A stretch of 63,263 bases of DNA, the filler included, from Folioceros fuciformis (taxonomy: Eukaryota), in NCBI GenBank assembly GCA_049999805.1. It is 6 parts of 6 records of this genome, joined end to end, with 100 filler letters (N's around TTAATTAATTAA, not from the genome) between each part and the next. Parts side by side here need not be neighbours in the genome. Positions count along the whole stretch, not along the records: positions 39,851 to 54,600 come from JBNGIO010005926.1; 5 more parts are not named here. One strand, given 5' to 3'. The notes under the pieces are model-generated. The model saw only the letters and a list, made by a program, of their open reading frames with translations. It was not told where the DNA came from and did no database searches. Positions 34,301 through 58,078 of this stretch are shown here, in pieces; positions within the stretch are counted from its first letter, which is position 1, and each line of letters starts with the position of its first letter. The position numbers and the translations under genes are program-made.

Positions 34301-37182
34301 CTCACATGAGGGTCTTCGGATCACCTGTTTATGTGCATGTTCACAAAGATCTTAGGCAGAAATTTGATCCTAAGTCAACATCCTGCATCTTTCTGGGTTT
34401 TTCAGATGGTATCAAAGGATACAAAGTTATTGACAAGCGTACCAGGAGGGTGACACATTCTCGGGATGTCATTTTTGTTGAAGGAGTGGAATCACTTGAT
34501 TCAGTGGGAGCTGCCTCCCAGGATACACCTGAAACATCAGATGATGAAGGGCAAGAATCAGTGCCCTCAAATCCAATAGCTGTTGTACCTCAAGTTACTG
34601 TACCACCAGCTAATCCTCAAGTTGGTGTACAAGGGCAGCAAGTTCCAGCTACGCCAATCAGTCAACCTCCAAATAGACCCACTAGTAGTGCTGAAACGGC
34701 ACCTATTGTATTTGGAGATTTTGACATAGAGGGAGTAGTGTCTCCTGGAGACTTGTTTTCTACACCCTCACATTATCAGCATACACAGACATCTGGAGTT
34801 GTGCAACGCAAAAAGAAGGTTGTCTCTGTACCTGTACAGCCAAGTCAAAAACCTGTTAGGTCAACTGCTGGGAAAATTGACCTATACAAAGCTCATGATT
34901 GGCGGCATGGCAAGGACCCAAAGCATTCAAAGTCAAATCTAACTTACTGTTTAGCTGCTGCAATTGAGCACTTCGAGCCACAAACCTATGAGGAGGCATT
35001 GGCCTGTCCTGATGCTGAACATTGGAGGAAGGCAATTGCCTCCGAGCTGAATTCATTGAAGGAGAATGAAACTTGGGAACTCACTCAGCTGCCACCTGGA
35101 AGGAAGCTCATTGGCAGTAAATGGGTGTTTAAGGTTAAATTGAAAGCTGATGGTAGCATAGAACGTTATAAAGGAAGAGTAGTGGCAAAGGGCTACTCAC
35201 AAGTTGCAGGAGTCGACTATACGGACACCTTCAGTCCTGTAGTAAAGATGAGCACTCTCAGATTATTTATGGCCCTGTTAGCAGTCCACAATTATGAGCT
35301 TGAACAGCTCGATGTTACCACGACGTTTCTGTACGGACATCTGAATGAAGAGATCTATATGGAGCCACCTGCTGGATTATTACCTTCTGACACTAAACAG
35401 CAGACTGTATGCAAGCTCAAAAGGACCTTATATGGACTTAAGCAAAGTCCTCGTGCATGGTTTGCACGTATACATAGCTTCCTAGTTTCTCATAACTACC
35501 TGCCTATTCATGCAGACGATAACGTTTATGTAAAGAAGGGCGAGGGCAAGAATTTCTTGGCGCTCGCAATATATGTTGATGACATACTTATTATGTCCAA
35601 TAGCCTGAATATGATTGGAGAGCTGAAGGAGCAACTCAAGTCTGCATTCAAGATGACAGACTCAGGTGCATTAACATTATGCCTAGGGATGCAAATTCAA
35701 AGAGACAGAGAAAGAAGGAGTATTTTTATGCACCAGGCTAAATATATCAGGCAGATCCTAGCACGTTTCCAGATGCAAAATTGCAAACCTGTTTCAACTC
35801 CTCTTGAACAAAACGTAAAATATAGTGCACAATAAGGAGAGGCAGAGCTTACTGCAGAAGAAGTAAGACTGATGGCAGAATTTCCATATACCTCTCTGAG
35901 TGGAAGCGTGATGTATTTGATGCTGGGCACAAGACCAGATCTTGCGTATGCTGTGGGAATTCTGTCCCAGTTTTTGTCAAACCCTGCCATGGCTCACTGG
36001 TTAGCAATGAGGAGGTTGTTCAGGTATATAAAAGCTACAGAAGACTGGGGCCTCCTCTACAGTGGAGATGCAGATGATCCACTTACTCTCAAAGCATTCA
36101 GCGATGCCGACTGGGCAGGAGACCAGGATTCACGCCGCAGCATCTCAAGCTATGTATTCACTTTGGCAGGGAGTGCAATCTCCTGGAGCAGCAAGCGACA
36201 ATCAACTGTTGCATTGTCATCAACAGAGTCAGAATACAAATCACTGACTGAAGCATGTAAAGAGGCCATTTGGGCAGTGGGAGCACTTACAGATCTTGGT
36301 TCCCTTCAACCACTGCCGCTAAGATTGATGTGTGACAATCAAAGCGCCATAGCATTATCAGAAAATCCTAGATTCCATGCACGCACGAAGCATCTCGGCG
36401 TGCAGCATCACTTCATCAGGGAGCAGGTTGCAAGTGGACTCATCCAAGTAGTGAACTGCCCCACAGGGCTCATGACAGCAGATGTCCTGACCAAGGCGCT
36501 AGGCAAGACGAAGCACAGCCAGCATGCTCATGGAATGGGACTGCGCTCCGGGTCAGGCAGGCCAATCTGGCTGCCCGATCCAGCTGAATCCAGCAGGAGC
36601 CATCAGGCTCATTTCGAAGATGCAGAAGAGATCTGAGTGCGCAACAGCAGCGCGCATCCAGCGTCAGGGCAGCTAGCAGCTGAGAGCCGCAGTGGCGGCG
36701 AGCTGCAATCCAGCAGCTGCGATCCAGCAGCTGCAAGTAACAAGCATCCCCAGCAGAGGGTGTCGGCGGCGCAAGTGTGCGCGCATCACTAGCAGCTGGC
36801 GATCTCGCACGGATCAGGCTCTCACGGCAGCGGACCGGCCACGAAGAAGGTGAAGTCCAAACATTTTTTGGATAGCGCTTCTTCGGCGGCAAAGTTTCTT
36901 TTGAAGTTTCAATTCTAGTTGAAGTTTCTTAGGGCAGTCAATAGAATTAGAATTAAATGGTTGCTAAAACTATGCGACTATAAATAACCTAACTCCTGAG
37001 TGGGAGTGAAACTATATATATATTAATTATGTCCAGTCCTTAGGTTAATTAGCGAACTAGACGGTTACCTAAATACGGTTGTAACCGTCACATGTTACCT
37101 CGGTTGTAACCGTCACATGTCAGGTGACACACAAAACGTGTGTTACCCCATAATGCAATTCATCCGATCCTATCTTTTTGCA
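31389..37182 (+). mobile_element. Ty1/copia LTR retrotransposon, nearly full length, with nonsense mutations
   Basis: 5' LTR remnant 31389-31479 matches the 3' LTR 37007-37182 (TG...CA); PBS TGGTTTCAGAGC 31480-31491; PPT GAGTGGGAG; gag ATG 32236; knuckle CGYCGIPNHTWEVC; protease YIDSGSS; integrase HSDVCGP/RSDNGGEY; RT YVDD; RNaseH SDADWAGD. Confidence 0.96.
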
Positions 37183-37785: not shown

Positions 37786-37885
37786 NNNNNNNNNNNNNNN
37801 NNNNNNNNNNNNNNNNNNNNNNNNNNNNNTTAATTAATTAANNNNNNNNNNNNNNNNNNNNNNNNNNNNNNNNNNNNNNNNNNNN

Positions 37886-39750
37886 CATCATATGCTCAGG
37901 CTAATCTCTGGCATGCGAGATTGGGCCATGTCAATAAGTTTAAGCTTAACGTCATGGCCAACTCAGATCTGTATAGGGAAAAGTTACCTTCTTGTTTCAA
38001 GCTCTTGGAGTCTTGCAGCTCTTGCATTCTTTCTAAGCAGAAAGAGCTGGCATTCAAGAACAGAGCTCCTAACCATGCTAAGGCTCTGCTTGAACTCATA
38101 CACGCTGATATCGCTGGAAAAATTCAGGTCAAATCATTAGGAGGTGTAGAATACTACCTAACCTTGACATATGATTTTTCACGATACACGTGGACTTTTC
38201 CTATCAGACACAAAAGTGATGTGTATGATCAGATTGCTTCCTGGATCCCTATGGTGCTTCAGATTGCTTCTTGGATCCCTATGGTGCAACGCCAAACAGG
38301 CTGTCTGGTGAAGTGCTTCAGGACTGATAACGGCGGGGAATTCACAGGCCAAAGGTTTGATGACCTCTTCCAGCAGTTTGGAATCATTCGCCAACTCTCT
38401 GTGCCCTATACCCAGCAGCAAAACGGGGTTGCTGAGAGGAAAAACTTATGGGAATGACCAGGTGCATGCTATCATACGTAGGGCTGCACAAGAGCTACTG
38501 GGCAGAGGCTGTTGTTACAGCAACTTACTTGCTAAACAGAGTTGTTACTTCAGCCCTGCCAGGCAAAATGCCATACGAAGCTTTCTGGGGAAGGAAGCCA
38601 AGCTTGCAGCATCTCAAGGTCTTTGGGTCACCAGCGTTTGCTTTCATATTTGAGGCAAAGCGCAAGAAATTAGATGATAGGGCTAAACAGCTGGTCTTTG
38701 TAGGCTACTCTGAGGAATCTAAGGCATATAAACTGTTTGATCCTGTCACATCCAAAATTACCTTGTCAAGGAGTGCGACGTTCAAGGAGCTTGTCTTCTC
38801 ATAGACTGATGGTGATACAATCAGCTCAAGTCATGCTTCCCGTATAGATTCCTTACTGGATGAGCAGTCTGTTGCAGTTCCTGTGCACTATCCACAGTCT
38901 GATGGAGAGTCACCAGATGCTGCTGATCTAACAGCTGTGGATGAACTAATTAATCCACCTGTTCCAGCTGTTCAGCCTTGTCCTCAGAATCCTGCCATGC
39001 ACACAGCCAATGATCAGATCCCTGCAGTTGCAGATCCTGCTGGTCAAGAGGACATTGACGATGAACACATTTCAGATGCTGCTCACTCTGAATCAGATGT
39101 GGATGCAGATTCGGAAAGCGTTGCAAGTCGCAGTGATGATGGCTCCCTTGGTTCAGCCGACTCTTTCGTGAATGCAGATTCATCGAATGGAGAAGGAGTA
39201 CCTCCTGCTGCTGCAGTGGGGGATACCTCTCCTAGGTACCCTGCTCGTGAGCGCAGGCCACGATCTGAGTGGCAGGAACCTCCATACCAGGCCATTGATT
39301 TTCGAAGGCCGTCTGCTCATGTTTCTGATGTACATGTGCCTGAGATTCGACCTGATCCTCAGAGTTACAAGGAAGCCCTAGAGGGGCCTGATGGCAAGCA
39401 TTGGAGAATCTCCATTAGTGACGAGTATAATTCCTTGGTGAAGAATCACACATGGGAACTTGCAGATCTGCCGCCTGGAAGGAAACCTATCACATGTAAG
39501 TGGGTTTTTAAAACCGAGCTCAAGGCAGATGGGTCAATTGCCCGGTATAAATCACGTCTAGTAGCTCGTGGGTTTTCGCAGATACCTGGAATTGACTATG
39601 GAGACACATTTTCTCCCGTCGTTAAGCCACCCTCTGTCCGGATTCTGCTGGCAATGGCTGCTAAATTTGACCTTGAACTCCACCAGATGGATGTATGCAC
39701 GGCCTTCCTTCATGGCGAACTCGAGGAGGTCTTGTACATGGTTCAACCTG
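37886..39750 (+). mobile_element. Copia integrase and RT N-terminal fragment
   Basis: WHARLGH, LELIHADIAG, RTDNGGEF, NGVAERKN, KLDDRA, KWVFK, YKSRLVARGFSQ, MDVCTAFLHG; bounded by linker gaps. Confidence 0.92.
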
Positions 39751-39850
39751 NNNNNNNNNNNNNNNNNNNNNNNNNNNNNNNNNNNNNNNNNNNNTTAATT
39801 AATTAANNNNNNNNNNNNNNNNNNNNNNNNNNNNNNNNNNNNNNNNNNNN

Positions 39851-40704
39851 TCTCTTCGTGAGCTCTTGGAGGTCCTCTCTTCGTGAGCTCTTGGAGGTCC
39901 TCTCTTCGTGAGCTCTTGGAGGTCCTCTCTTCATGAGCTCTTGTGGTCTGTCCCTGCTTGGTTTAGGACCTGCAACGTGTTGCCGGCTGTACAGTGTCTG
40001 GTAGGATCGTGGGCAGCGTGTTGCCGGCTGTATAGTGTCTAGTAGGATCGCGGGCAGCGTGTTGCCGGTTGTATAGTGTCTGGTAGGATCACAAGGTGTA
40101 ATGACCAGGGTGTAGGGGCTTGCCCCTAGCTCTTGATTGTAAAGGATGTGTCTTTCTCTCGACCTGTCCACTCTTGCTTCTTGCTTGGACAAGTGTGCTG
40201 TAGGTTGGCCATGTCTCATGCCATCTGGTAAGGTCGTGGGAGGAAGATATCCAAGAGGGGAGTGTGTTCCCTTCTTTCTTTTCTTTGGGGTTAGTCTATT
40301 GACTCTTGCCGGGTAGGAGGAGTCAGGAGGGAAGTGTAGAAGGTAGTGGTGTCATTGTTAGTTGCTGGTGTTGGTGCTGGAGTGAGAGAGTGAGTGAAGT
40401 GAGTGAGGGAAGTCGCAGATCTAAGAGGTTAGGGTTGTTGTAGTGACTAGAGTGAGTTTGTGGGCACCGAGAGAGGTGCAGCCGACCGCCGAACAGTGAG
40501 GCCTGTCCTACGCTTGATCGGAGCTGGAGGAGAGCCCTCGAATCCATCATCGAGTCGATCAAGTCCGACCCTCTATCCACAGCAGCAAGGAACCCCATCG
40601 CTCCTTCGTGGGAACGAAACCCAATGTCTCAACGACAGTGGGATAAGTGTGGCCGCTAAAGGTTGAACCTGTTGGCAAACAGTGCCCGGGGTTTTTCCAC
40701 CACA
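39851..40704. repeat. Long LTR-like repeat (partial); reverse complement of ~49273-50125
   Basis: Ends CCGGGGTTTTTCCACCACA, inverted relative to TGTGGAGGCAAAACCCCGGG at 49273; contains 25-bp and ~41-bp internal tandem repeats. Confidence 0.88.
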
Positions 40705-43700
40705 GAAACCCTCAGCCAATGTTGTTTAGAATAGGATAGCAAATATATGTGTTAAGTAAACCAATGCTAGGATAAATGAACCTAGCTTAGCTAGATATTT
40801 CGCAAACTAGCTTAGAAATAGCTAGATGTTTCTAGGCAAGTTGAGTTGGAACACATGTTGGATATTTCCCAACTTGTTGTTGGTGTAACCCTACTGCCAA
40901 ACGTGGGAAAACAATAGAACTTAGGGTACACTAGCAAGGCATCATGGAAGGAGCAGCGCTCGGAGGGCGTGAAGGGCATGAAGCCAACTTAGCTGGACGC
41001 TGGATCGTGAAGATGGCTGGCGCTAGGCAAAAGGGGCAGCTAGGGCAAAAGTCGATAGTTGTTGAAGTTGCGCCGTGTAGCGCTATAACTTGGGGAAGGC
41101 AGCTCAAACCATGTTTTTGTGTTCTCTGGAATTGGGAGCTAGGATGAAGAACGTTTTTAGTGCCTTTGATTCTAGTGTTGTAGTTCATAGTGTAACTTAT
41201 TGACTCACCAAGCTGCGTGTGTCACGCAGCTCCTTTCAAACCTAGATTGCTGCAAGTCTTTGCTGCAATCTCTTCAATTCAACAACTATTTCAATATGGG
41301 ACAGGCATGCAAGATGTGGGAGTGAATGAGCTGGGTGGAGGCAGATGCACAACTACAACAAGGCAGCATCACCCACGCGCCCTAATCGTGCTAGCAGCAG
41401 CAGCAGCAGTTCATCTGCAGCAAGCTTTCCCAACCTTCCAGAGTTCATAGCGTCATTTACAGAGGTTGGTTGCTTTCAATTCACATACTTGATTGTTTGC
41501 CTCACTGAGACAAATCCATTGGTGTGATTTTTGTTCAATTTAGAGTGAAATCCAGGGATTGAATGCCTTGGAGGAGTTGGTCACTTAGGGTTTCAGTTGG
41601 GGAATGTTGGCTATTTGCAGCCAACACTCCTCTTGTTGCAGCATAGGGGCCAGGGCTCTTGTGAACAATGACATCTTAGGTCTTTCATTACATGTAGCTT
41701 AGCTTTTAGACCAGCTCCCTACAAGTCCTTTTTTGCAGCTGTGACTTTGGCATATCACAGTTCTGGACTAGTCTGGTTTTCTAGCTTTAGCAGCAAGCCT
41801 GACTGCAGTACTGGCTTGCCTTCTTTTCCTCTTCCAACCTAGCTAGCTGACTTGTTGTTTGTTGTGCATGTTCCTGGGGGAATGCAACCTAAGGAGCATG
41901 GGACTAGTTCTCGTTACAGACTGAGATCCCTTGACATCCCTGGACAAAGCACCCCACCTAGACGTGCATACACACAACGGAGGAGGGCAGCCAAGAGGCA
42001 GGAGCAAGCTCAAGAGTTTTTGGAAGTCAGGTTCGACCCCGACACTCCACCTTCAACAACAAGGCCAACAACCAGTTGGTCCACATTTACACGTTTCCTT
42101 ATCTCTGAGCCTTCAACTTTGGAGGGAGAGCATGCTCCATTTCAGGGCCAGCTACCTGAGGAGGAGACGTAGGGAGAGTTCTTTCTAAAGTAGTCCTTGG
42201 GCCATACACCCTTGGAGCAGCCCCACTTGCCAGCCTTCAGTTCACTTAGGCCTTAGATTTCCTCATCCAGGACAGCCATACATCATCTAGTCACGTGTTG
42301 AGTATTCTGAAGAATCAGACGACATGGAGGGAGGAGCACCTTACAGGCATGAGAGATTTTGAGGGAGGCCAAGTACACAGCTCCTATGGGACTTCAGGTT
42401 ATTTGTCAATGGCATGATCAGTCGGGTCAAGTTTAAACATGGTGCTGCGTACAGCCACCTCTACATGTTTGAACAATTGGCTGGGCATCTAGTAGACGAG
42501 GCCCTGGACTTGTATGAGGTGCACCAAGCTGAACTCACAGGAATGGTGGCTACACCTAACCCCTTATTCCAAAATGCCTTGCAGCTAGCTTACAATGCTA
42601 AGCTAGCTAATGCAATTAATGCTCACCAAGCTGCTATTGCTGCTAGGAGCATTGCAGCCCATAGTGCAACCACCAATAGTAGTAAGCCTAACAACAGCAG
42701 AAATGGCTGCAGCTACTGCAGGTGTGGATGCTGACATCCTCACACCCAAGCATGCCAACCCAATGGAAGACTTTTTGGGGATTTTGGAAAAGACTTTCCC
42801 CTCAAGACACCCGAGAAGATTGCAGAGTTGGCAAATTTTGCGCGCAAGAAAGGTGAAACTATTCAAATGACCTTTCGTCGATTACAGAAATTGTGAGAGG
42901 GTACAAGAATGCTGACAGACCAAGAGGCAACACAGAAACTCCTCACAGCGCTAGAAGGTGATCCACTTTTCCACTTTTAGCTCGTCACATCCCTTGTGGA
43001 TAAGTATGGAGATAATTATACTTTGGAGCAGGTGGTTGAGGAGGTTGAGAAGAAGGAGATTGCATTCTCAACATATGCCTCAAGGCATTCCAAGGCCTTC
43101 ACGCATTATCAAAGCATGTTCTCTAATAAGAACATAGCTGCTGGGAGTGTAGGTGCTGGGGCATCCAATTCTACTCAAGCCAAGCCAGCCAAAGCAGGAG
43201 CTGCAGCAACCGTGGAGGCTTTGTGCAAAGTGTGGCAGTCCGGAGCACATGGCTCCGGCCTACAAGTGCCCTCCCGAAGGACTGCTTTGTTCTCTTTGCC
43301 ACAAGCTTGGACATCTTGTGACTGTATGCTTCCAAAAGCATATGGAGCGAAGGCAACAGTGAGGGGGCACCACAAATGTCGCAGGGACAGCTCCCAATTC
43401 CACTGATTCAAGCCCCTTGGCTACAGGCAATTCAAGAGTCTCACGCAGCAAACAGCAGCGAGAGAAGGCCAAGGCCAAGGTGGCTACTAATGCAAACAAG
43501 CTCACTTCACTAGAAGCAACTGTGGTTGCTCTTGCCAAACAGGTGGGGGCACTTTCAGCTAGCATCTCTAGCAGCATAGTTGCTTCCAAGCCAGCTGGGA
43601 TAGCCACACTGGTGGCATCACCAATAGAGGATGATGAGGACTATGGCTACCGCATGAGGCCTGTACAGTAGATGTGGCAGCATCAGTGTCATAGCCAAGT

Positions 43701-44341
43701 TCCCCCCTGCCTTCTACATTGGTAGGACAAGACCTTCGATGGTTGACCATGGCTGCAGCAACTGGATCTAATGGACCTGTCACACGACAGCATGGGGCAA
43801 GGGCTGCCATGCCTCAGTCTTTCACCCCCCTTCCTCCAGGAGCATCCATCCCGGTGCGGGGACAAGATCACTTGGATGATGGACAACTAAATATGGCTGG
43901 TCCAGGATTATAGGACAGGTCACCTACGCATACAGTGGGTGCCTGACCTATTCAGGCTGGGGGTCGATGTCATCTCTTGCCACAGGTCATGAGCACTGAG
44001 CAATTGGCCAAGCGCTTGGCAAATGTGCTGTTGTTTTCAGTTCAAGACATGGGCATCAATCCTGGGCAGTTGAGCCAGACCTTGAGGAGTGGAGAATCAA
44101 CAGCATTTGTCACAATGACTACTGGAACAACTGATACTGAATGGGCTGCAGGTTTGCCAACAACCTCAGCCACAGACATGTCATTTTTAGCAGTGGACAT
44201 GGCTCCACAGTGGGACATGGGATCTATGCTAGGAGTATACACCTCTCAACGTGCCACGTCCATGCCAAGTTGCCCTCGTGTGCAGCTCACCAACCGCATG
44301 AAGGTGCGTGTCGGCAATACCATGGTGGATAATTGAGAGGG

Positions 44342-44710
44342 CATGTCACTGTCAACGGATATGCACCAAAGATGGTCCTGTTGGATACTAGAGCGCAGCC
44401 CGTCATCGTCGGCAAGACCCTTGCTGCAAGCCTGCGATTGGGTGGAGATGCTCTCAAAGCATCACCATGGAACATTAGGACATCATCTGGGTAAATTGAG
44501 CGTGTCTGTGGAGAGACTGTACAGCCAGTTACCATTACGTTGAAGCCTGGCACAGCCTCCTCCATGACGCTTGCCTTGCGTTGTCTAGTGACCACGGCCA
44601 CAAATTATGATGTGCTGCTTGGGCAAGAGTTCCTCTTCCCTCTAGGCATAGGCATGGACAACTGGTCCGAGCTCGCCTACTATAGGCCTGATTGGAGGAA
44701 TGGAGGTCAG
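44342..44710 (+). pseudogene. Retropepsin aspartic protease domain of the DNMT-gypsy element
   Basis: VTVNGYAPKMVLLDTRAQPVIVGKTLA (DTG to DTR by GGA>AGA) and NYDVLLGQEFLFPLG; same reading frame as the downstream DNMT. Confidence 0.82.
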
Positions 44711-45082
44711 CAGGTGGCCTACTTGCCTCTTGATCTCCATGGAGCCAGTGAGGTGGACACTGCAACCTTGATTGCTCCACTGGTGCTTACATGCACCTTG
44801 ATTCTTGACACCAGGTAGGTGGACACTTGGCTGGATACCAATCTTGATGACGAGGATGGAATGATGAACCAGCCAAAACAGTCATTAGCAGCAACCTCGT
44901 GCTTAAGGGATGTGTTGTTGAAAAATGACACGGGTGACCCATCTGCAAACATCTTGCATGTGGCCACCCCACATGTGCAATTGACCCTTCAAAGGATGCA
45001 GCCACCTCCTGCACCATATGAGCGACCAACACTCGGTGATGTGAATCGGTTCATCATAGCATGGACACCCTCTGCACCTGGC

Positions 45083-46040
45083 TTGACAGTTCTGGAGCTG
45101 TTTGGGGGCCTATGCATTTGATTGGAAGCCATGCTGCAGAATGGGCTGGTTGTGGCCCACTACATTTATTGTGACAAGTGTCCCATAGCTAGGAAGCTAG
45201 TTGCTTTTCGAATTTAGGGACTACAATCCCAATTTCCAGCACAGCTGCCACTCATTGCCATGGCTACCATGTTTGCAACCCTTCCACAGGACGTCAAGTA
45301 CATCCAGGTTGGGCACATTCAGCGCCTACCACCCATAGACATCGTAGTGGTTGGTTGGGAATGCCAAGGGTTTTCCTTAGCTGGAGCTGGAGAAGGTTTG
45401 CAAGATACGCGCTCTGCTCTTTTCTGGGATCTGCGACGCATCTTGGTGTGGATTCAGGCCCGCAACCCTACCTGTGCTTACATTTTGGAGAACACTCCAG
45501 CCCAGCTGGATTCTCGACTACAGGTTCGACAGGACATGGCTGTGATCTAGCAACATGTGGGGGTTCCTTTGTTACTTGATGGTGTACAAGTGGGCAGTTA
45601 CGCACATCGCTTGTGTAATTTTTTGACCAACCTTGCACCCCAACCCTTGCTAGAATTGGTGTTGGCTGGTACCACTCGGGACCCATCCTTGAGCTTGGTC
45701 ACAGTCCTGGACAGTAATCACCAGCCTCGGCCTGTACGTGCTATAGAGGGGAAGCCCTAGTACAACACCAACGTCCTAGGACAGCCACGTAGTACCCTTC
45801 CTATGCCGGTGAGCTATCCCAGCTCTCATGCATATAGAGGGCAGGGAGCTGGCATGATGTTGAACACTGACACATAGTAGTGGGAAGAACCCAATGTGGA
45901 GGAACGAGAGTGAGTGATGGGTTTTCACACCCAATTTAGCACCACAAGTCACAGTTTAGCAGCGGTGCTTAGCCTTGGGCCGTGCTATGGATCTTCACGC
46001 AGTGACATGGCTGGTCAACATCTACCTGGCCTTTCAACTC
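45083..46040 (+). pseudogene. Cytosine-5 DNA methyltransferase domain (DNMT3-like) within the retrotransposon pol
   Basis: Ordered motifs: I LTVLELFGG; II YIYCD; III QDVK; IV IDIVVVGWECQGFSLAG; V GLQDTRSALFWD; VI YILENT; VIII SYAHRLCNFLTNL; IX WEEPNVEERE*VMGF; X LGRAMDLHAVTWL (after a frameshift). In-frame stops are present. Confidence 0.9.
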
Positions 46041-49000
46041 ATGTCTCGTACAGGTCCTCGCCATGTCCCCCATTTCTCCCACACTTGTGCTGCAGATGCC
46101 GTTCATCTCCCATTCCCTGGTTACACTACATGNNNNNNNNNNNNNNNNNNNNNNNNNNNNNNNNNNNNNNNNNNNNNNNNNNNNNNNNNNNNNNNNNNNN
46201 NNNNNNNNNNNNNNNNNNNNNNNNNNNNNNNNAGGGGGGTCTGTGCATGGACTGCTGGAGCTGAGCATAAGCCACGTCCTTCTGTTGAGAACTTTCTTTG
46301 GACAATGGGACCCAAGCTCACAAGCAAGCAGCAAGCTTAGGTTCGCAGTCTGTTGCTGAAATACATGGATTGTTTTGCCTTCTCCATGAAGGAATTGAAA
46401 CGTTGCAATGTGAATGTCTTCTACATCAAGTTGACCAGTGATGAGCCCATTTATAGGCAGCATTATAGGCTCAGCCAAATGGAGTGGGAGATGGTGGATG
46501 CATGATGCCAGGAGTTGCTGGAGGCTGGGCTCATCCGTCCCTCAAGCTCAGATTATGCCGCAGCAACAGTCATGCCTCCGAAGTAGGATAGCAACAGGAT
46601 GTGGACAGAGAAGCAAATGTGTGGGGACTATCGTCCCATCAACGTTGTGATTGCCCAAGACCGATATCCCATGCCAACTCTTGAGGAAATCTTCAACAGC
46701 ATCGGCAATTCTATGTTTTTCTTCATATTGGATCTCCGGCAAGGATTCAACCAAGTTGCGGTGGTAGAGGAGGACATCAAGAAGACAGCCTTTCATGGCT
46801 CTCGGCAGCTATGGGAATGGCTTGTGATGTCCTTTGCCTTTAAAAATGCACCGATGACGTTTCAGCAGGTGATGGACATGGTCTTAGCAAGATCTGCACA
46901 CATGATATGTTACATTGATGACGTGTTGGCGCACAGCCTGGACTTTGAGAGTCACTTGGAGCACCTTGAGGATCTATTCATTCAGCTGCGCAAGGCAAAC
47001 TTGACTTGCCATCTTGCTAAGTGCGAATTTGGCATGGATACTTTGGCTTATTTGGGACATCGAATTGTGCCAAAGAGGGTTATGCCACATTCAGCCAAGG
47101 TGCACGCCATCCTACAAGTGAAGGAGCCAACCAATGTTTCAGCATTGAGGGCTTTCTTGAGCTTATGCAACTATTACAGGGTATACATCCAAAGTTTCAA
47201 CCGAATTGCAAAGCCACTGAATGATATGCTGCGCAAGGATGTGCATTGGAGTTGGACAGCTGCTGCATAGGAGGCCTTTGACATGCTTAAGGCTCAGCTA
47301 ACCGCGGCCCCTGTGATGGCCAGACCTGATTTTTCCAAGGCCTTTTTGGTGCATACACATTGGAGTGTGCTGGGTTTTGGGGTTGTCCTCGCACAGCTAG
47401 ATGAAGAGGGACACGAGCGCGTTACAGCTTATGCATCTTGCAGCAATAACCATGCGGAGGCCAATTACAACAGTTACCATGGGGAATGCTTAGCGACTGT
47501 GTGGGCTGATTGCCATTTCCGCCCATAACTGTTTGGGAAGCCCTTTACATTGGTGACAAATCATTAGCCTCTCAAGTGGTTGATGACAAACACCAAGCTC
47601 AGTGGTAAGCTGGCAGGATGGGTTATGATCTTGCAAGATTATGAGTTCAATGTGGTGCACAGGCTCGACGTGAAACACTAGAATGCCGACACCTTGTCCA
47701 GGAATCCTAGTGACAATCATGTTGATGCAACCGCAGCCCAACATGATTTGGATAGTGATGAGGCAGAGGGTCTTGATGAGGCAGCCCTGGTGGCCATGAT
47801 ATGCTTGGGACAGCTGGAGGTTAATGCAAGTACTACCAGGCCCAAGGACATCTGGGAGGATGTTGAGACTTTGCAATTTGTGCAAACTGGACAGCTGGAC
47901 ACGTCACTAAAGCCAGCAATCCAGGAGCGGATTCGTCAATGTGCTGAGCTGTACTACTAGCGAGACAACTACTTGCTGCGAAGGTTGGGTAACGGAGTGG
48001 AACGTCTTGTGCCTCCACCAACTGAGAGGGAGCAGTTGATTTGTCAAGTCAATGACGACATTGGTCACTTTGGTGTCAAAAGGACCTACAGCCTCTTGGT
48101 TCCATATTTTCATTGGTACGGGATGCATGCCCAGGTGAAGCAACAAGTGGCTCGTTGTGTGGAGTGTGATAGAGTTAAGACCACCTTCAACATTTAGAAT
48201 CCACAACTACAGCCTTTGCCCATCATGGGTTCTGTTCTTTCGGTGGTCTTGTGACCTGCTTGGGGAACTCCCTTGTACACCAAGGGGCAATGTCTACGTG
48301 CTTGTTATGATGGAGCATTTCAGCAAGTGGATCGATGTGGTGGCCCTTCCTGATAAGACATCCACAAGCACAGCGCAAGCTTTCCTTCAGAATGTGCTGG
48401 CACGCTTTGGAAGTTGTGCTGAGTGCTTGACAAATCAAGGCTCTGAATTCCGAGGAGAATTCCAAGATCTGCTAGATGCAGCATTGATTGACCATTGCAG
48501 GACTAGCCGAGACCACCCCCAAGCCGATGGTCTCGCAGAGTGTATGGTGCAAACAATCAAGAAGGGGCTGAGGAAACTGTGCTTACGGATGCCCAAGACA
48601 GAGTGGGATTTGGCCCTACCATACATTGGCATGGGGTACAGGCTCAACAAACATGCCTCCTTAGCTCACTTCAGTCCCTACTTTTTGCTGTTTGGGAGGG
48701 ATCCCATACCGCCCAGTGCTATTGCCAAGCAAATGGCAGAAGTTTTGGATCTGGATGATCCTGCTGCTTGGGCACGTGCTATTGGTGAGAGGGCTGCATT
48801 GTTCAGGCAAGTGATGCCCATGGCAATGGCCAATCTCCGCATTGCACAGCACCAGGACACATTGCAGTATGCATACACTCGGAGTGGTAGTTTCAGACCC
48901 AAACTGAAGAAATTTCAAGAGGGTGATTTCGTATACTTGCAACGGCAAACAGGGTACACTTTAGACACTGTTAGCAGCCGTCATGTGCTGTGAGTCAGGG

Positions 49001-49146
49001 AGGTTCGACCAAATGGGGTCTTGCTACTGCAAGAGTCATATGAGCGCACCATCACAGACCACATGAAGAATTGCGCGCCCTGCCACCTTCCTAACCTAGA
49101 CCCAACCATTGTCACCGCCGATTGGATTCCTCCTCAAGATTACCCA

Positions 49147-49275
49147 TGCCACGTATGCCAGAGGATTGACGACATTGAGTTGATGCTACTTTGTGACCAC
49201 TGCAACGGTGGTTACCATTTGTTCTGTCTCAATCCACCTCTCTCAAAAGTTCTTGAGCAGCTTTGGTACTACTGT
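49147..49275 (+). pseudogene. PHD finger at the integrase C-terminus, truncated by an LTR-like insertion
   Basis: CHVCQRIDDIELMLLCDHCNGGYHLFCLNPPLSKVLEQLWYY fits the C4HC3 PHD pattern; the last Cys pair is cut where the repeat starts at 49273. Confidence 0.9.
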
Positions 49276-50420
49276 GGAGGCAAAACCCCGGGCACTGATT
49301 GCCAATGGGTTCCACCTTTAGTGGCCACACTTATCCCACTGTCGTTGAGACATTGGGTTTCGTTCCCACGAAGGAGCGATGGGGTTCCTTGCTGCTGTGG
49401 ATGGAGGGTCGAACTTGATCAACTCGACGATGGATTTGAGGGCTCCCCTCTAGCTCCGATCAGGCGTAGGACATGCCTCGCTGTCCGGTGGTCAGCTGCA
49501 CCTCTCTCGGTGCCCACAAACTCACTCCAGTCACTACAACGACTCTAACCTCTCAGATCTGCGACTTCCTTCACTCACTTCACTCACTCTCTCGCTCCAG
49601 CACCAACACCAACAACTACCAGCAACCAGCAACGACACCACTACCTTCTACACTTCCCTACGGACTCCTCCTACCCGGCAAGAGTCACTAGACTAACCCC
49701 AAACAAAAGGAAGAAGGGAACACACTCCCCTCTTGGGTATCTCCTCCCCACAACCTTACCAGACGCCATGAGACATGGCCGGCCTACAGCACTTGACCAA
49801 GCAAGGAACAAGAGTGGACAGGTTGAGAGAAAGACACACCCTTTACAATCAAGAGCTAGGGGCAAGCCCCTACACCCTGGTCATTACACCTTGTGATCCT
49901 ACCAGACACTATACAACCGGCAACACGCTGCCCGCGGTCCTACCAGACACTGTACAGCCAGCAACACGCTGCCTGCGATCCTACCAGACACTATACAGCC
50001 GGCAACACACGGCTTGCGATCCTACCAGACGTTGCACAGCCAGCAACACACTGCAGGTCCTAAACCAAGCAGGGACAGACCACAAGAGCTCAGGAAGAGA
50101 GGACCTCCAAGAGCTCACAAAGAGATAGACTGACTCCCAAAGTGAATGACTCCCTCCTCCTATAGGCTCACCTGATCTTATAGGAGCCTCTCTCTCTCTC
50201 TCTGACTTCACCTCTCTCTAACTTGAGAAATATTATTTTAATAGCCTAGCCGGCTGTCACCAGCCACTTATTTAGACTTCTAGCACAACCTACCACCAAT
50301 GAGCTCCTGGCCCTACCACCACAAGGATCTACCACCTCTTAGACTATCCTGAGACTTCAAAGGATGTATGATCTTCAAAGGTCTGCGGACGCCGCCTCTT
50401 CCTTGCTGGATGGTCGCCCG
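49273..50420. repeat. Long LTR-like repeat inserted into the PHD finger
   Basis: Starts TGTGG; homologous to 39851-40704 (inverted); ~41-bp tandem units at ~49895-50060; right boundary approximate. Confidence 0.8.
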
Positions 50421-53400
50421 CTAAGTCTTCCCCTGCAACTGTTCACCCTTGGTGGTTGAGCTAGCCTCTAGGGGAGGAGCATGAGCAATGGTAAAGATAG
50501 AGAAGAGGTGGGAAGGAGTGGGATAAGCAGCCGGAACCTGGCCTGAAAACGGTAGCTTATTCAGCGGGATTAGCTCCCAGCCGAAATGGTTCCTCGGCCA
50601 TGAAAGACTGACCCTAGGGTGCTGGGGAAGGCCCTGAACTAGGAGGAAGTCTTGAGGAATATCGTGGGGCACCACGTATTCAAAATCAACATGTTCAACA
50701 TCACCTTGTTCCATACAGGGGTCCTCATATACTACCTCGTGGTCTATTTCCATGTCCCCCTCTCGAGCAGGAACAGAGGACTCAGGAGGGGGCTGCACTT
50801 GGGGAGCAGAACTAACAACTGGCGGCACCAAAATTGCTTGAGGGATAGGAGCCATAGGAGGAGGAGGAACACCACTAGTCAGAAAAGTAAAGGGCTGAAC
50901 AAAGGGATCAATAGAAGTATCACTAGAAGAGCGAGGAGTGCTCGAGCCAAAGGAAGCACCATCTTGCACGTCAAGAGGAGGCTCAAATGATGTCGCAAGA
51001 GCAAGCACTATCTTAGCTTCATCAAAGGTGACAATGCGGGCGTAGATAGGAATCCGAGAGTCCAAGTCCACAAGCTTGTAGGCTTTGCGGTCATCGCCAT
51101 AACCGACAAACACCAACTTGCGAGCACGAGCATCAAGCTTGTCGCGAAGCTGTGATGGGACAAGAGCATAGGTAGGGCAACCAAAAACACGAAGATGTGA
51201 AATTAAAGGCTTGCTCCCATGCTAACACTCATATGGAGTACGGCCAGAAACCGACTTGGTGAGGACTTTGTTCTTAATGTACACTGCAGTAGACATAGCC
51301 TCAGCCCAAAAGGACTTGGGTAGCTGGGACTGTGCCAGCATGGCACGAGCCATGGACATCAAATGGCCATAGGCCTTCTCAGCAACGCCGTTCTGCTCAG
51401 AAGTCTAGGGCACTGTAAACTGATGCAAGACACCACGCTGCTTGCAGAAGTTGCGAAACTCATGGTTGTTGAGTTCTCCCACATTGTCGGAGCGAATACA
51501 CCGAAGTGTACGGCCAGTTTGTAACTCAGCCATAGTAACAAAGGGTGAGAACACATTAAACGAGTCACTCTTAAGACGGATAGGAAACGCAAACGTATAT
51601 CGACTGAAGTCATCCACAATAGTCATAAAGTGATCCGCCTAAAGACGAGATAGGGAGAGGACCACATAAATCTACATGGACCAAATCAAGAGGTGCCAAA
51701 GACCAACGAGCAGGAAGAGTAGGATAAGGGGAACTTCGCTGTTTAGCAAGGACACAAGCTTCGTAGAGAGGCTTTGTTGACGGAAGCTTAGGAAGTTTGT
51801 CCTGGAACAAGTCTTGCTGGGAGTTGGCAAGCAATCGAGCAGGGTTGAGGTGCGCGAGCCGGCAATGCCACAAGAGAGCTGCACCTAGATGCGAGCTCCT
51901 ATGCGGCTAGTCTCCGTGAGAGGAAACCACCATAGAGGCAGCCGCTAAAAGCACGGGCTTGCTTGAAAAGACATATAAATCATGACAAGGATGACCTTTA
52001 GCAACAATAACTCGTGGGTTAGAAGTCCGAGATAACAGACAGCCTCCAGGGCCAAAGTTGAGGCGAAAGGATTCGTCCCGCATAGATGTCTAACAGAGAT
52101 AAGATACTTGGCCATGTGGGAAACATGTAGCACATTAGTAAGAAATAGCAAGGAACCATCATCCAAAGTGAAGGTGATGGAACCATGTCCTGCAATAGAA
52201 AGACCAGAGTCATCCCCAAGCAGTACGGAACGCTGAGTATTAGCAGACGCTGCATACGTAGCGAACATCGACTTGTGGCTATAGATATGCGCTGACGCAG
52301 CTGAATCTATCAGCCAGGAACTCTTGTACTCAAAGGTCACAAGACAAACAGTGAGAGAAACGCCAGGGTTAGAATGGTTCTTGGCCTTAGTCGAAACCAC
52401 CACGGTATTTGCCGTGCGAGGTTTGCGCTTGGCCTCACCAGCTTGCTTCTTCCTGCAATCCCTTTCCCAATGACCTGGGGACTGGCACCAGTTGCACGTA
52501 CCTTGCCACCTTGGTGTCTTCGACAAAGAGGGTGCTGAGGAAGCAGGCTTAGAAGTACCTGTGGAGTTATTCCTTCAATTGTTATTATTATAAGAATTCT
52601 TACGCTGCGATTGCCGTCCTTTGGAGCCAAACATGACCCTCTCTCCTCCATGTTTGGAAATCCTGATATTGAACCTGGCAGACTCCTCTTGAGGGAGTGC
52701 TCCAGCGATCTCGGACACGGTGATGTTGGGAACCATACCCAACTGCACAACCTGATGTGCATTTCTCACCGTTTGGTTTTGAGAGGAGACAAATGTCTGG
52801 TAGCTAGCCAGGAGGCTAGCCAATAACTGAACAGCAACTTCAAATTCGGTGATGGTTGTCCCAAGAGCAGCAAGCTGGGCTTGCAAATATCAAAACTTGC
52901 TAACGTGCTAAGCAACGATGTCATTGGGGCCCATGCGCAAAGAATAGAATTCCAGGCGTACCGTGACCAGCGTCATCACGTTCGCGGACTGATAGATGTC
53001 AGTGATTTGCTTCCAAGCTTCAACATATGTGGACGCACCATTAGTGTGATGTAAGGTAACCTTGTCGAGGCCAAAGATCAACATCTGCATAGCCTATCAA
53101 TCTTGATGAACCCAAGCATCAATGGCAGCCGGATTAGCGGAGGGCTTGGGAATGGTTCCCTCCACAATGGGGAGAAGATCTCGAGTGTTGAGCATAGTCT
53201 TCATGAGCTTTGACCACACCTCAAACTTCGTACCATTAAATCTATCCTTTTCCTTGAAGACATGTCTGTATTGATATTAACGATGTTGAAGTAAGGTTGA
53301 AGTGGGGGGATACCAACTGGGGGTGGAGGTGGTGGGTTGCCTGCTGGGCCATCAAAAGGTGGTGGGTTGATGGTTTGCCCACCTAGAGGTGGTGTGGGTG

Positions 53401-53470
53401 GTGACGGGGGTCTTGATCCTAGCCTTGGAGACCCAAAAAGCCCCGACCCAGAGGTAGAAGCGCTTGACAT
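50421..53470 (-). mobile_element. Ty1/copia gag-protease-integrase fragment, decayed and 3' truncated
   Basis: CNWCQSPGHWERDC knuckle, WLIDSAAS, WHCRLAH, DLVHVDLCGP, VDDFSRY, RSDNVGE, VFVGYG; no RT. Confidence 0.92.
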
Positions 53471-53840
53471 CTATTGTGGATTTTAAACCACAGCGTAAGC
53501 CGATGATACGTTATGATACAACGCCGAGAGTATGAGTGAAAGAAGAATCACAAGAGATTATGTAATAAAAGTATTACCCTTCGTCTTTTAGAATCCACCC
53601 ACCACAATTATTTCCTCCCTGTGGTGAGGAATGTGCAGCTGACTCTTCATTAAGCAAAAACAGCCTTTGCTCAAGCTTTCAAAAATTAAAAAAAATCAGA
53701 ACACTGTTTGCCAAGTTCAGGCCTTCCTCCTCGCAAATCCTGGGCCTGCTGTGGCTTCCACGGCCTGGTTGCCTCCAGTAGTTGCTGCTCCTCCTGAGTC
53801 TCTCTCCCTCTCGCCCCTCTCACGCGCTCTTGTGCCTGTG

Positions 53841-54600
53841 GTCATATGAGCGCACCATCACAGACCACATGAAGAATTGCGCGCCCTGCCACCTTCCTAA
53901 CCTAGACCCAACCATTGTCACCGCCGATTGGATTCCTCCTCAAGATTACCCATGCCACGTATGCCAGAGGATTGACGACATTGAGTTGATGCTACTTTGT
54001 GACCACTGCAACGGTGGTTACCATTTGTTCTGTCTCAATCCACCTCTCTCAAAAGTTCTTGAGCAGCTTTGGTACTACTGTGGAGGCAAAACCCCGGGCA
54101 CTGATTGCCAATGGGTTCCACCTTTAGTGGCCACACTTATCCCACTGTCGTTGAGACATTGGGTTTCGTTCCCACGAAGGAGCGATGGGGTTCCTTGCTG
54201 CTGTGGATGGAGGGTCGAACTTGATCAACTCGACGATGGATTTGAGGGCTCCCCTCTAGCTCCGATCAGGCGTAGGACATGCCTCGCTGTCCGGTGGTCA
54301 GCTGCACCTCTCTCGGTGCCCACAAACTCACTCCAGTCACTACAACGACTCTAACCTCTCAGATCTGCGACTTCCTTCACTCACTTCACTCACTCTCTCG
54401 CTCCAGCACCAACACCAACAACTACCAGCAACCAGCAACGACACCACTACCTTCTACACTTCCCTACGGACTCCTCCTACCCGGCAAGAGTCACTAGACT
54501 AACCCCAAACAAAAGGAAGAAGGGAACACACTCCCCTCTTGGGTATCTCCTCCCCACAACCTTACCAGACGCCATGAGACATGGCCGGCCTACAGCACTT
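53841..54600 (+). repeat. Second copy of 49035-49794 (PHD plus LTR junction)
   Basis: 760-bp block with no differences seen by eye; identical translations; ends at a linker gap. Confidence 0.92.
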
Positions 54601-54700
54601 NNNNNNNNNNNNNNNNNNNNNNNNNNNNNNNNNNNNNNNNNNNNTTAATTAATTAANNNNNNNNNNNNNNNNNNNNNNNNNNNNNNNNNNNNNNNNNNNN

Positions 54701-57700
54701 GAGACAGTCACCTTGGTGAGTATCGTCCCCAACAGCCCATTGGTTTTCTCCGTCAGCCCATTGGCCTTGGGGTTGTATGGAGTCGTCTTCCGATGTCGAA
54801 TGTTGAAGTAGCGGGTGAGCGATGCTATAACCGTGTTCAGAAAATGGGTTCCGCGGTCGCTCACCAGCTCCAACGGACACCCATACCTAGTGATGATGTT
54901 TTCGAATAGGAATTTGGCCACGGTTGATGCATCATCCTTGCGGGTCGCCTCTGCTTCCACCATCTTCGTGCAATAGTCGGTGGCAACCAAGATATACTGT
55001 TTGCGTGTCTGCTGCGTTGGAGGTCGGATGGGTCCGACGAAGTCTATTCCCCATTTTTCGAAGGGTGCCAGGGGCAGAATATAGGTTAGGGGCCACTGCG
55101 TGCCTAGGGTCGGTCTCCCAACCCGCTGGCAAGCGTCACAACGCTTGATGTACTCCCAGACGTCTCTATGCAGGGTCGTCCACCAAAATCCCGTATCCAA
55201 GATCTTCTTGGCAGTCACCTGGACTGAGTAGTGACCGCCCGCCTCTTCAGCATGTAAGGCCTCGACTACCAATATGGCCTCCGCCGGCTCCAAACACCTG
55301 CGAATTTTTCCATCGGGGCCCATCTTGTACAATATCTCATGCTTCAGGCAATAGGGTCCTACCTTATGTAGAAAAACGGCTCGCCCTTCCCTGCTCAGGT
55401 CAGCGGGAATGACCCCATGGGCCAGGAATTGACGAACTTCCTGATAGGTGGGTGGCCCGGTGCCCGAACGACCAATTCGTTCCCCCCGGGTGCGTCGTTG
55501 TGTACGGGTGGATCCGCGGCTTCTTCCCTGGCGTGGATGGGAGGTCGGGGGATCTCTAATCACGGCGGCTTGCGCCCCCCCTTGAGGCGGTGATTCTCCG
55601 CAAGCCTCAACGTTGGGTACTTCTGTCGAACTCCCTCGAGGACCCACCTGAGTAGGTTTGTTCTCGTCGTTGATCACTGCCACTAGTTCTTCGTCGGGGA
55701 AACGGTCATCCGTCTCTCGCACCCTTCCGCTCGTCTTAAGCCTTGAAAGGAAGTCCGCATTGACATGTTTCTTCCCCGCTCGAGTTTCCACTTCGAAGTC
55801 GTATTCTTGGAGGAGTAGGATCCACCTGGCGATTCTTCCCGAAAGGTCCGGCTTGTTGACCAAGTGAAAAGTGATCCACATGGAACACTGCCTTGCACGC
55901 CAACAGGTAATGTCGGAATTTCTTGCAGGCATAGATGATGCCTAACGCTTCTCGTTCAGTCGTTGAATAATTCCGCTCTGCATTAGTCAGTTGCCTGCTA
56001 GCGTAAAAGATGGGATGGTCACGACTCTGGGCGTCCCGCTGGCTGAGGATAGCGCCGATGGCGTAAGCGGACACATCCACGTCCACGTGGAACGTCTTCT
56101 CCCAGTTCGGAGGTTGTAACGTTGGTGCCCGAACTAGGCCTGCCTTCAATTGTTGGAATGCTGCCTGTCTCTCAGCGGTCCACTCGAAAGGGACGTCTTT
56201 CTTGGTGAGCTGGGTAAGAGGAGCAGCCTTCTTGGCAAAGTTGCCGATGAAGCGGCGGTAATATCCTACCAAACCGACAAAGGCGCTGACGAAGGGGTAA
56301 CCCTACACTTGGTCAACTAACTAGCCGAGTTAGNNNNNNNNNNCTCTCTCGCCCTCCGGCTCTCACCTCCCGCTACATGCGAACTTAACAGGCGCGTACC
56401 TGTCTCACGTTTTGCGGGGCGTCCATCTCAGCGATTACTTTGACCTTCTCGTGGTCCACCTGTAGTCCCCGTGCTGACACTCGATGAGCCAGTAGGATGC
56501 CTTCCGTCATCCCGAAGTAGCACTTGCCGGGGTGGAGCTTGAGATTGGTTTCCCGGCACCTCCGCAGACACTTCCGTAGGTGATCCAAGTGCAGTTCTCG
56601 CTTCCCAAATACGCAAAAGTCGTCTAAGAAGACTTCCATGATCTTTCGGAGTAAGTCCTTGAAAATGGTATTCACCACTCTCTGAAAGGTCGCGGGGGCA
56701 TTGCAGAGACCAAAAGGAAGCTTAGAGTACGCAAAGGTTCCCCAATCCGTCGTGAAGGTGGTCTTCTCCTGATCTTCTTTTCGCAAAGAAATCTGATTGT
56801 AACCAGAATACCCATCCAGGAAGCTGTACATCTCGTGGCCCGCTACGGTATCCAGCACGCTGTCCAAGAAGGGCAAAGGGTGGTGATCCTTCTTGGTGAC
56901 CTCATTCAGTTTACGGAAGTCCTGGCAGACCCTGACCTTCCCCGGCTGTTTCTTGGGTACTACCACAATGGGAGCCACCCAATCACTGGTGTGGACGGGG
57001 TAGATTACTCCCGCCTCTAGATACTGGTCCAATTGTTCTTTCACCACCATCGAATACTTGGGATTCAACCGATATTGTCTCACCCTCACTGGAGTGCTTC
57101 CTTCCTTCAGGTCGATACGATGAATTCCCAACTCTTCTGGTATTCCAGTCATATCGGTTACTTTGAACGCGAATACATCAATGTATTCATGTAGGAGGGC
57201 CTTCATCTCCTCTCGCTCCTCGGGTCGCAAGTGTTTGGACACTTTGACACTCTTACCAGGCTCAAGTTCCATTTCTTCCACCGCATCGGGGTCGACATAG
57301 ACCCCCTCGGGGCTGCTGCCTACACTCGTCCCGGATCCCCATTCGGGAAAATCCTGATTAAAAGTTCGCCCCTTCCAAAAAACCGAGCCTTCCTCCATCC
57401 TATCTTCCACGATCGCATCCACCCGATAACATCGCGGGTCGTCATCGTGCCCCTCCTCCGCGTAGAGTCCTTGATACGTCCCCGAGGAGCTGTCGCCTGT
57501 TCCTCCGGACGTGTAACCTGCTGTGGGCGGTTCAGTCTCCCCTCCGTAGGGCGCTCTGCTCCAGGAGACAAAAGCGGTCCCCTTGACCCCTGCTTGTCGA
57601 GTTGTAAAGGTGACGCCTCGCCTCCCGAAATCGAAGACACAAGCGGTGCCGTACAGCCATGGCCTTCCCAGGAGGACCTTATACCCCAAATCAGACATAG

Positions 57701-57978: not shown

Positions 57979-58078
57979 NNNNNNNNNNNNNNNNNNNNNN
58001 NNNNNNNNNNNNNNNNNNNNNNTTAATTAATTAANNNNNNNNNNNNNNNNNNNNNNNNNNNNNNNNNNNNNNNNNNNN

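Follow-up and report, generated by a model that had tools for sequence, protein, structure and literature searches.

The scaffold piece at positions 39851–54600 (JBNGIO010005926.1) of a 63,263-nt stretch of DNA from Folioceros fuciformis (NCBI GenBank assembly GCA_049999805.1; the whole stretch is hereafter called the window) carries, at 42345–50125, what is very probably a dead Ty3/gypsy retrotransposon copy with a DNA methylase inside its pol region. On this reading, pol runs from a protease (PR) through a DNMT3-like C5 cytosine methyltransferase (DNMT), reverse transcriptase (RT), RNase H (RH), and integrase (IN) to a PHD finger, and the copy belongs to a multi-copy family of the streptophyte ‘Gypsy-DNMT3’ kind. 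Retrotransposons bearing the enzyme normally used for their silencing are rare. A preliminary description of this DNA had placed a gypsy element encoding its own methylase at 42323–49272, coordinates that fit the internal region: 42345 is the first position of the gag match and 49272 that of the 3′ repeat arm. The window copy itself adds no mechanism; its value is that it extends the kind to a probable land plant and points to a far larger family, with two architectures, among green plants.

Protease and methylase share a reading frame (Table 1). Frame 2 of 44333–46132 passes from a retropepsin through a linker to the C5-methyltransferase motifs with nine in-frame stops, and 44345–45859, protease included, aligns with the gag-PR-DNMT protein P0003 as one tblastn segment (41% identity, E = 3e-116). 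Pfam scans, made on frames read through with X at each stop, place the protease just below the cut-off of two families (PF13975, 26.0 bits against 28.2; PF13650, 23.7 bits against 24.3). Within the methylase domain there are seven in-frame stops, and a frameshift lies between 45945 and 45991. Its motifs read ELFGG (I), GWECQGFS (IV), ENT (VI), GSYAHRL.. (VIII), and ERE.VMGF (IX), and motif X (LGRAMD) follows in frame 0, past the frameshift. An ordered set of C5-methyltransferase motifs in the frame of the retropepsin had been proposed for 45083–46040, and PF00145 bears it out (34.5 bits, cut-off 22, E = 2e-8, about 45314–45514). The companion claim, that a single frame is broken only by point stops, holds for the shared PR-DNMT frame and its nine stops; a frameshift then lies ahead of motif X. 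Introns, held to be absent in the preliminary description, are indeed absent from the methylase, which aligns with the near-intact locus L066 (see below) over 315 columns with two gaps (44% identity, E = 3e-96). Downstream, RT and RNase H followed by an H2C2/DDE integrase form the order of a gypsy-type pol, with the DNMT as an extra insert between PR and RT. The family profile (see below) matches the Ty3 Gag-Pol chain 7q5b_A at 81.9 bits. Judged from frame and domain order, the DNMT forms an integral segment of a Ty3/gypsy-type pol, in frame and flanked by protease and RT; the suggestion that it was part of the polyprotein agrees with this position and with the single frame of L066.

The gag of this copy is recognisable solely through its relative P0003 and two CCHC knuckles. 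P0003 residues 9–247 match 42345–43076 in tblastn (32% identity, E = 7e-33), residues 290–410 match 43222–43554, and the knuckles were read in the open reading frame (ORF) at 43153–43362. Pfam identified no family in gag, nor in three frames of 40706–42362, between an inverted repeat arm and gag. At the other end of the coding region, the intact integrase ORF (48139–48993) has its best matches in P0078 (71% identity) and in P0082 from the leafy liverwort Calypogeia fissa (70%), with Sphagnum, Closterium, and Tetrabaena next at about 48–50%. On sequence alone, a bryophyte is the most likely host, probably a liverwort. The PHD finger at the integrase C-terminus did not figure in the preliminary description. 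Other classifications were tried and rejected. A DIRS order is ruled out by the rve/DDE integrase and by the lack of any Pfam match to the tyrosine recombinase family PF00589 in the window copy or L066. A chromovirus is ruled out by the integrase C-terminus, which is a PHD finger and not a chromodomain. A host DNMT3 gene or pseudogene is ruled out by the intronless, in-frame position inside pol and by the absence of PWWP and ADD domains from Pfam scans of the window copy and L066.

The methylase and the RT of the window copy lie on either side of a 100-N scaffold gap, and relatives supply the order across it. The read of 45945–47564 (P0121) aligns with P0004, a DNMT-RT-RNase H protein of 820 amino acids (aa), as one segment with 49% identity over 559 columns. 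The gap flanks match P0004 residues about 322–329 and 392–411; they are collinear, and the spacing fits. The DNA that encodes P0004, locus L066, holds at 8165–14179 a gap-free single frame of 2005 codons with four stops, comprising protease, DNMT, RT, RNase H, integrase, and PHD (Pfam: PF00145, 36 bits; RVT_1, 101.7; RNase H, 119.5; Integrase_H2C2, 52.4; rve, 45.9; PHD, 37.6). Within L066, 9920–12463 is an open stretch of 847 codons that spans DNMT, RT, and RNase H. The PHD finger occupies the same position in L066, and the PHD end of the window copy is very similar to it. Because L066 is free of gaps and the flanks of the window gap are collinear with its product, the PR-DNMT-RT order is a property of the family.

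The family is also repeated. In two DNA runs under the same organism label (X1 and X2), 250 and 234 contigs, respectively, match 44300–47600 at 90–100% likeness. They cover 30 of 30 bins in X1 and 29 of 30 in X2, DNMT bins included, with up to nine differing contigs per site and differences that are mostly transitions. So many diverged contigs over the DNMT bins indicate a diverged multi-copy family. The presence of the DNMT in other copies, a point on which the preliminary description had made its case depend, is found in the X1 and X2 contigs, in database proteins, and in metagenome loci. Across a multi-copy family, the methylase is a constant component of the polyprotein; it is neither a one-off capture nor an assembly join. 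No RNA set is listed as containing the stretch; one possible RNA run gave two contigs that match a 41-base piece of the RT and are uninformative on expression.

To place the methylase, we compared a profile of 14 family sequences from both domain orders (A1; the two orders are described below) with PDB. It matches DNMT3A at 90.9 bits (E = 4.5e-25), DNMT3C at 89.0, and DNMT3B at 86.4; among plant structures, tobacco NtDRM scores 54.4 bits and DRM2 46.8. Aligned with DNMT3A chain 2qrv_A, the profile covers motifs I, IV–VIII, and IX–X in canonical order, and the resemblance of motifs VIII, IX, and X to DNMT3 that had been noticed by eye is visible in this alignment. As a single query, the decayed window copy matches PDB entries weakly (M.HhaI, 26 bits over 50 residues; DNMT3A, 19.8 bits). 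An AlphaFold model of the L066 domain, made with 20 sequences, has a mean pLDDT of 93.3 and a pTM of 0.91. All of its Foldseek matches listed to rank 50 are DNMT3A, DNMT3B, or DNMT3C catalytic domains, with 6f57_D at the top (E = 5.2e-20, TM 0.71/0.82), and structural alignments to DNMT3A/B run at about 20–22% identity. All 14 sequences compared, which span both domain orders, retain the catalytic Cys, the E-N of motif VI, and the A-H-R of motif VIII without change. By profile and by predicted fold, the domain is DNMT3-like, with a motif order that is not rearranged in the manner of DRM. Host DNMT3 (animal DNMT3A/B/C and moss PpDNMT3b) and plant DRM are its closest solved relatives on both measures. 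The window domain differs from host DNMT3 in lying inside a retroelement polyprotein without PWWP or ADD, and in the motif IV Glu of most family members read. The methylase is DNMT3-derived, not a host DNMT3 gene.

The window copy is dead and heavily mutated, and is incapable of the functions proposed below. Its stops, frameshifts (gag carries them as well), altered protease motif, and motif VIII substitutions uphold the earlier verdict that the copy is no longer functional. Every stop in the window DNMT faces a sense residue of L066; since, in addition, only two gaps occur over the 315 aligned columns, the decay is one of point changes. The catalytic Cys, motif VI E-N, and motif VIII A-H-R are retained despite the stops and the frameshift.

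The ends of the element are not those of a canonical long terminal repeat (LTR) retrotransposon, and some of its relatives have a DIRS-like A-coding-B-A-B arrangement. In L066, A1 (5558–5849) equals A2 (14406–14697) at 91.8%, B1 (14229–14404) equals B2 (14698–14873) at 95.5%, and together they give A-coding-B-A-B. Among the best 80 metagenome loci, B-A-B lies downstream of the coding region in 22, and 13 of these 22 have a direct-orientation upstream A as well; the upstream A is inverted in four of the 80, and many of the remaining loci have too little flank. The preliminary description had looked to gap-free PR-DNMT-RT relatives with paired LTRs: L066 supplies the gap-free coding region, and its ends turn out to be A-coding-B-A-B, with no direct LTR pair in the window copy. 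What the window copy does have upstream is an inverted copy of its 3′ repeat arm, 1.6 kb before gag, whose outer end is cut by the scaffold spacer at 39751–39850 and whose inner-edge neighbouring sequence is unlike the PHD end. Both arms contain tandem units, of 25 nt repeated three to four times in the left arm (39851–39968) and of 41 nt repeated three times in each (39972–40094 and 49892–50054). This inverted arm could stem from an adjacent copy that points the other way, from a rearrangement, or from a family difference.

Relatives of the methylase fall into two domain orders. A search with the methylase region returned 53 proteins at E ≤ 1e-3, which local domain mapping divides into six with PR/gag-DNMT or DNMT-RT, 45 with RT-RH-DNMT-IN, and two with DNMT only. 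The PR-DNMT-RT group includes Marchantia polymorpha MARPO_0091s0058 and a Closterium protein; in the Marchantia protein P0011, Pfam places PF00145 at 460–529, ahead of RVT_1 at 833–919. The RT-RH-DNMT-IN group includes Haematococcus lacustris and Chlamydomonas eustigma (proteins P0005–P0051, e.g., P0013, P0016, and P0040). By local phmmer mapping, most long polyproteins end in a PHD stretch. A metagenome scan with P0004 as query gave at least 600 candidate stretches, of which the best 80 were kept as loci; at least 586 related stretches were confirmed among 600 candidates. HMMER with the L066 domain against 1.84 billion cluster representatives gave 252 at E ≤ 1e-30 and 757 at E ≤ 1e-10, and among the best 150, many proteins are long (1000–3400 aa) and have the domain in their interior.

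Several single proteins of this set have features of their own. P0013 and P0028 continue for about 350 residues past the PHD finger, where a G-T-G glycine-rich loop and an S-P-W-F motif can be seen by eye. Pfam finds nothing in this C-terminal extension, which recalls a class I SAM-dependent methyltransferase and may be a second methyltransferase-like module. In P0052, PF00145 and RVT_1 occur together with PF05869 (Dam adenine methylase). Contigs of 8407 and 10080 bases carry the gag-PR-DNMT proteins P0003 and P0020, and contigs of the same sizes carry the RT-RH-IN-PHD proteins P0289 and P0302, which suggests that these are whole elements called as two genes.

Among known systems, the chlorophyte RT-RH-DNMT-IN-PHD polyproteins are homologous in the methylase (31–42% identity, E down to 8e-56) and share the family motifs, the integrase type, and a C-terminal PHD finger. 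They differ in the place of the methylase, which lies between RNase H and integrase in 45 of the 53 proteins, as against between protease and RT in six, and many carry a further C-terminal extension with no Pfam match. Chromoviruses carry a chromodomain at the integrase C-terminus. They resemble the window element in fusing a histone-reader-type domain to the C-terminus of a gypsy integrase and differ in that the window element has a PHD finger there.

DNMT-bearing elements have been described as SymbioLINE-Dnmt, SymbioDIRS-Dnmt3, and KnitGypsy-Dnmt3, from dinoflagellates and Klebsormidium nitens (de Mendoza et al. 2018, PMC5890265); the preliminary description had cited the same two lineages as prior art, in accord with that paper. 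The methylases of the K. nitens elements were placed there inside the DNMT3 clade. The window element is like KnitGypsy-Dnmt3 in its intronless, non-rearranged DNMT3-type domain within a pol ORF of gypsy composition (PMC5890265). Several of its close relatives are like KnitGypsy-Dnmt3 in their A-coding-B-A-B ends, which are printed as typical of DIRS elements and for KnitGypsy-Dnmt3 (PMC5890265, legends to Figs 1e and 4c). The window copy differs in coming from another host, in being dead, and in having an inverted arm in place of A-B-A-B. The comparison is by description only, and the word PHD is absent from the text of PMC5890265. By shared anatomy, the family falls within the streptophyte ‘Gypsy-DNMT3’ kind, of which KnitGypsy-Dnmt3 was the first to be described. 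SymbioDIRS-Dnmt3 from Symbiodinium likewise has a DNMT3-type domain in pol and A-coding-B-A-B ends, with two variants of differing domain order (PMC5890265). It is a tyrosine-recombinase (DIRS) element, whereas the integrase of the window element is of the rve/DDE type and bears an H2C2 finger.

Later texts name ‘streptophytes (Gypsy-DNMT3)’ (bioRxiv 10.64898/2026.05.21.726589 and PMC12344493). The first of these describes EpiLTRs and DAM-LTR elements, which are also LTR-type elements with DNA methyltransferase domains. Their DNMTs are sister to DNMT4 in the authors’ tree, and the authors set them apart from Gypsy-DNMT3 (bioRxiv 10.64898/2026.05.21.726589). The window element has no Dam domain; P0052 recalls the dual-methylase elements of that preprint. 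A land-plant Gypsy-DNMT3, the PHD-integrase link, and a chlorophyte RT-RH-DNMT-IN order found no description in the full-text literature searched, nor in passages of PMC6453930, PMC9033089, and bioRxiv 10.1101/2021.11.30.470311.

In near-intact relatives the methylase is encoded within one pol frame and its catalytic residues are conserved. In active copies it would be made within Gag-Pol and would accompany RT and integrase, either in the particle or in the pre-integration complex. The PHD finger could bind nucleosomes of a given H3-tail state and so tether integration to them. By comparison of a family profile with PDB, the closest PHD fingers of known structure are those of CHD4, BAZ2A/B, KDM5, ATXR5, and PHF21A; H3 unmethylated at K4 is the ligand of several of them, which gives a lead only. 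We tentatively propose that the DNMT3-type domain may carry out de novo methylation of the new cDNA or of the surroundings of the integration site, a role to which we give distinctly less than an even chance. A new copy would thereby be put into methylated, silent chromatin on the element’s own terms.

It is unlikely, if far from negligible, that the methylase is real and family-wide and does another job: acting on RNA, binding DNA or chromatin, or interfering with host silencing, either as a decoy or by competing with host DNMT3. Pro-Cys in motif IV is near-universal among C5 methyltransferases. In the family it is Glu-Cys in seven of eight sequences (window about 45353–45367), Marchantia having Pro-Cys, and this substitution of Glu for Pro speaks for such another job. 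So do de Mendoza et al. 2018, who call the role unclear and raise RNA methylation for LINE-type elements (PMC5890265). On the other side, the invariance of the Cys, E-N, and A-H-R in 14 divergent sequences is the pattern kept by a working C5 methyltransferase, and the predicted L066 structure superposes on DNA-bound DNMT3A/B structures.

It is very unlikely that a DNMT contig was scaffolded by artefact to an unrelated gypsy RT contig, so that no PR-DNMT-RT element exists at this locus. The junction is indeed a 100-N gap that no listed contig bridges, and a 760-nt segment of the element (49035–49794) recurs with 100% identity at the scaffold end, so repeats troubled the assembler. Both gap flanks nevertheless match neighbouring parts of P0004 with fitting spacing, and the RT, integrase, and PHD beyond the gap are the family’s own, at 49% identity to P0004 and with a PHD end like that of L066. 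A one-off capture or nesting, in which a host DNMT3 pseudogene or fragment landed in a single gypsy copy, is hardly credible. The general possibility of nested insertions in a repeat-rich window speaks for it; a methylase that is intronless, in the frame of the protease, and without PWWP or ADD speaks against it, as do the many diverged contigs that cover the DNMT in two DNA runs and the same order in six database proteins and the metagenome family.

Besides the motif IV Glu, several points weigh against the reading of 42345–50125 as a dead member of a methylase-bearing gypsy family. Among the contigs listed from four public runs, none spans 46133–46232. Loose contig ends run 63–78 bases into the gap from the left side, and the listed contigs are only 50–250 bases long because the family is repeated. 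In the window copy a scaffold gap separates DNMT from RT, where at worst two members of the same family have been joined. In this copy, the nine stops and the frameshift in PR-DNMT are followed by six more stops in 45945–47564, the catalytic motif of the protease is altered, and motif VIII is substituted. No direct LTR pair flanks the coding region in the scaffold 39851–54600, and a sensitive search with 7-base words gave neither B-A-B nor a direct 5′ repeat in the window copy, where the only upstream repeat is the inverted arm. The relatives fetched are themselves mostly decayed, with no plus-strand ORF of at least 300 aa in 11 of 18 loci examined. Kinship with KnitGypsy-Dnmt3, finally, is a matter of shared anatomy and not of a tree, none of the searches having returned a sequence from K. 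nitens.

More than a single alga thus harbours the streptophyte Gypsy-DNMT3 kind: it is multi-copy here, occurs in Marchantia and Closterium proteins, and is abundant in eukaryotic contigs, and a large chlorophyte sister group has the methylase elsewhere in pol. We conjecture, at a little short of an even chance, that Gypsy-DNMT3 is an ancient green-plant clade of PHD-integrase Ty3/gypsy elements and not an acquisition of the Klebsormidium lineage. Such a clade would have carried a DNMT3-type methylase since before the chlorophyte-streptophyte split, with one move within pol (to give PR-DNMT-RT in streptophytes and RT-RH-DNMT-IN in chlorophytes). It would have kept A-coding-B-A-B despite its DDE integrase and persisted into land plants (liverworts and possibly mosses), where host DNMT3 survives too. 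If this is true, PHD finger and DNMT3 domain together form an element-borne counterpart to host DNMT3, with its pairing of reader and writer. Bryophytes retain host DNMT3 and are transformable, so a land-plant family offers a tractable system for studying the role of an element-borne DNMT3.

Table 1. Features of the DNMT-bearing element and of the rest of the window (positions along the whole window)
Feature	Position	Strand	Remarks
Inverted copy of 3′ repeat arm	39876–40705	−	self-blastn against 50125–49272, 88.3% over 858 columns
gag, two CCHC-type zinc knuckles	42345–43554	+	tblastn with P0003; stops and frameshifts
Retropepsin-type aspartic protease	44345–44635	+	catalytic motif altered in this copy
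DNMT3-like C5 cytosine methyltransferase	45047–46040	+	motifs I, IV, VI, VIII, IX, X in canonical order
100-N scaffold gap	46133–46232	.	inside variable DNMT-RT linker
Reverse transcriptase, YIDD motif present	46617–47066	+	PF00078 (RVT_1), about 78–79.1 bits
Ty3/gypsy-type RNase H	47271–47525	+	PF17919 (RT_RNaseH_2), about 80–82 bits; PF17917, about 50–54 bits
Integrase: H2C2 zinc-binding + DDE core	48012–48519	+	PF17921, 56.3 bits; PF00665 (rve), 48.9 bits
PHD finger, integrase C-terminus	49147–49275	+	PF00628, 36.0 bits, cut-off 24
3′ repeat arm	49272–50125	+	begins inside last pol codons; three 41-nt tandem units at 49892–50054
Copia-type fragments (RVT_2, Pol_BBD, gag_pre-integrs, SH3_retrovirus)	2626–5660; 32779–35835; 38805–39806; 50421–52574; 59988–60755	− (50421–52574)	
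PORR-domain (PF11955) ORF	19291–20427	−	intronless; other piece of window; Pfam
PORR-domain (PF11955) ORF	29912–30865	+	intronless; Pfam
Sec1-family fragment	21240–22262		same piece as PORR ORFs

The window consists of several independent scaffolds, each linked to the next by a spacer made up of 44 N, a 12-base word with stops in all frames, and another 44 N; the spacers lie at 31289–31388, 37786–37885, 39751–39850, 54601–54700, and 57979–58078; features on opposite sides of any spacer are not genomic neighbours. Runs of 100 N and 10 N elsewhere in the stretch are within-scaffold gaps. The 760-nt duplicate noted above lies at 53841–54600, the very end of the same scaffold, and contains the PHD end and the first 523 nt of the repeat arm. 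The two repeat arms of the element differ by 12%, as against the complete identity of the 760-nt pair. The second copy is probably an assembly duplicate; it could alternatively be a very recent duplication.

Other mobile elements occur in the window as well. The copia-type fragment on the minus strand directly follows the 3′ arm of the methylase-bearing copy. An ordinary gypsy element occupies 54649–58022 (−) on a separate scaffold, where a read-through of 56385–58022 gives protease (residues 41–121) and then RT (residues 355–505) with no methylase match between them, and integrase lies in a separate ORF (54649–55941). This gypsy element without a methylase contrasts with the DNMT-bearing family of the same assembly. 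Pfam assigns no family to an open frame of 708 codons at 26142–28268 (+). The host genes seen in the window are only the two PORR ORFs, which score 252 and 192 bits for PF11955 in the order of Table 1, and the Sec1-family fragment. The PORR ORF shares only 33–40% identity with named angiosperm proteins, and its nearest Atlas clusters are assigned to Streptophyta.

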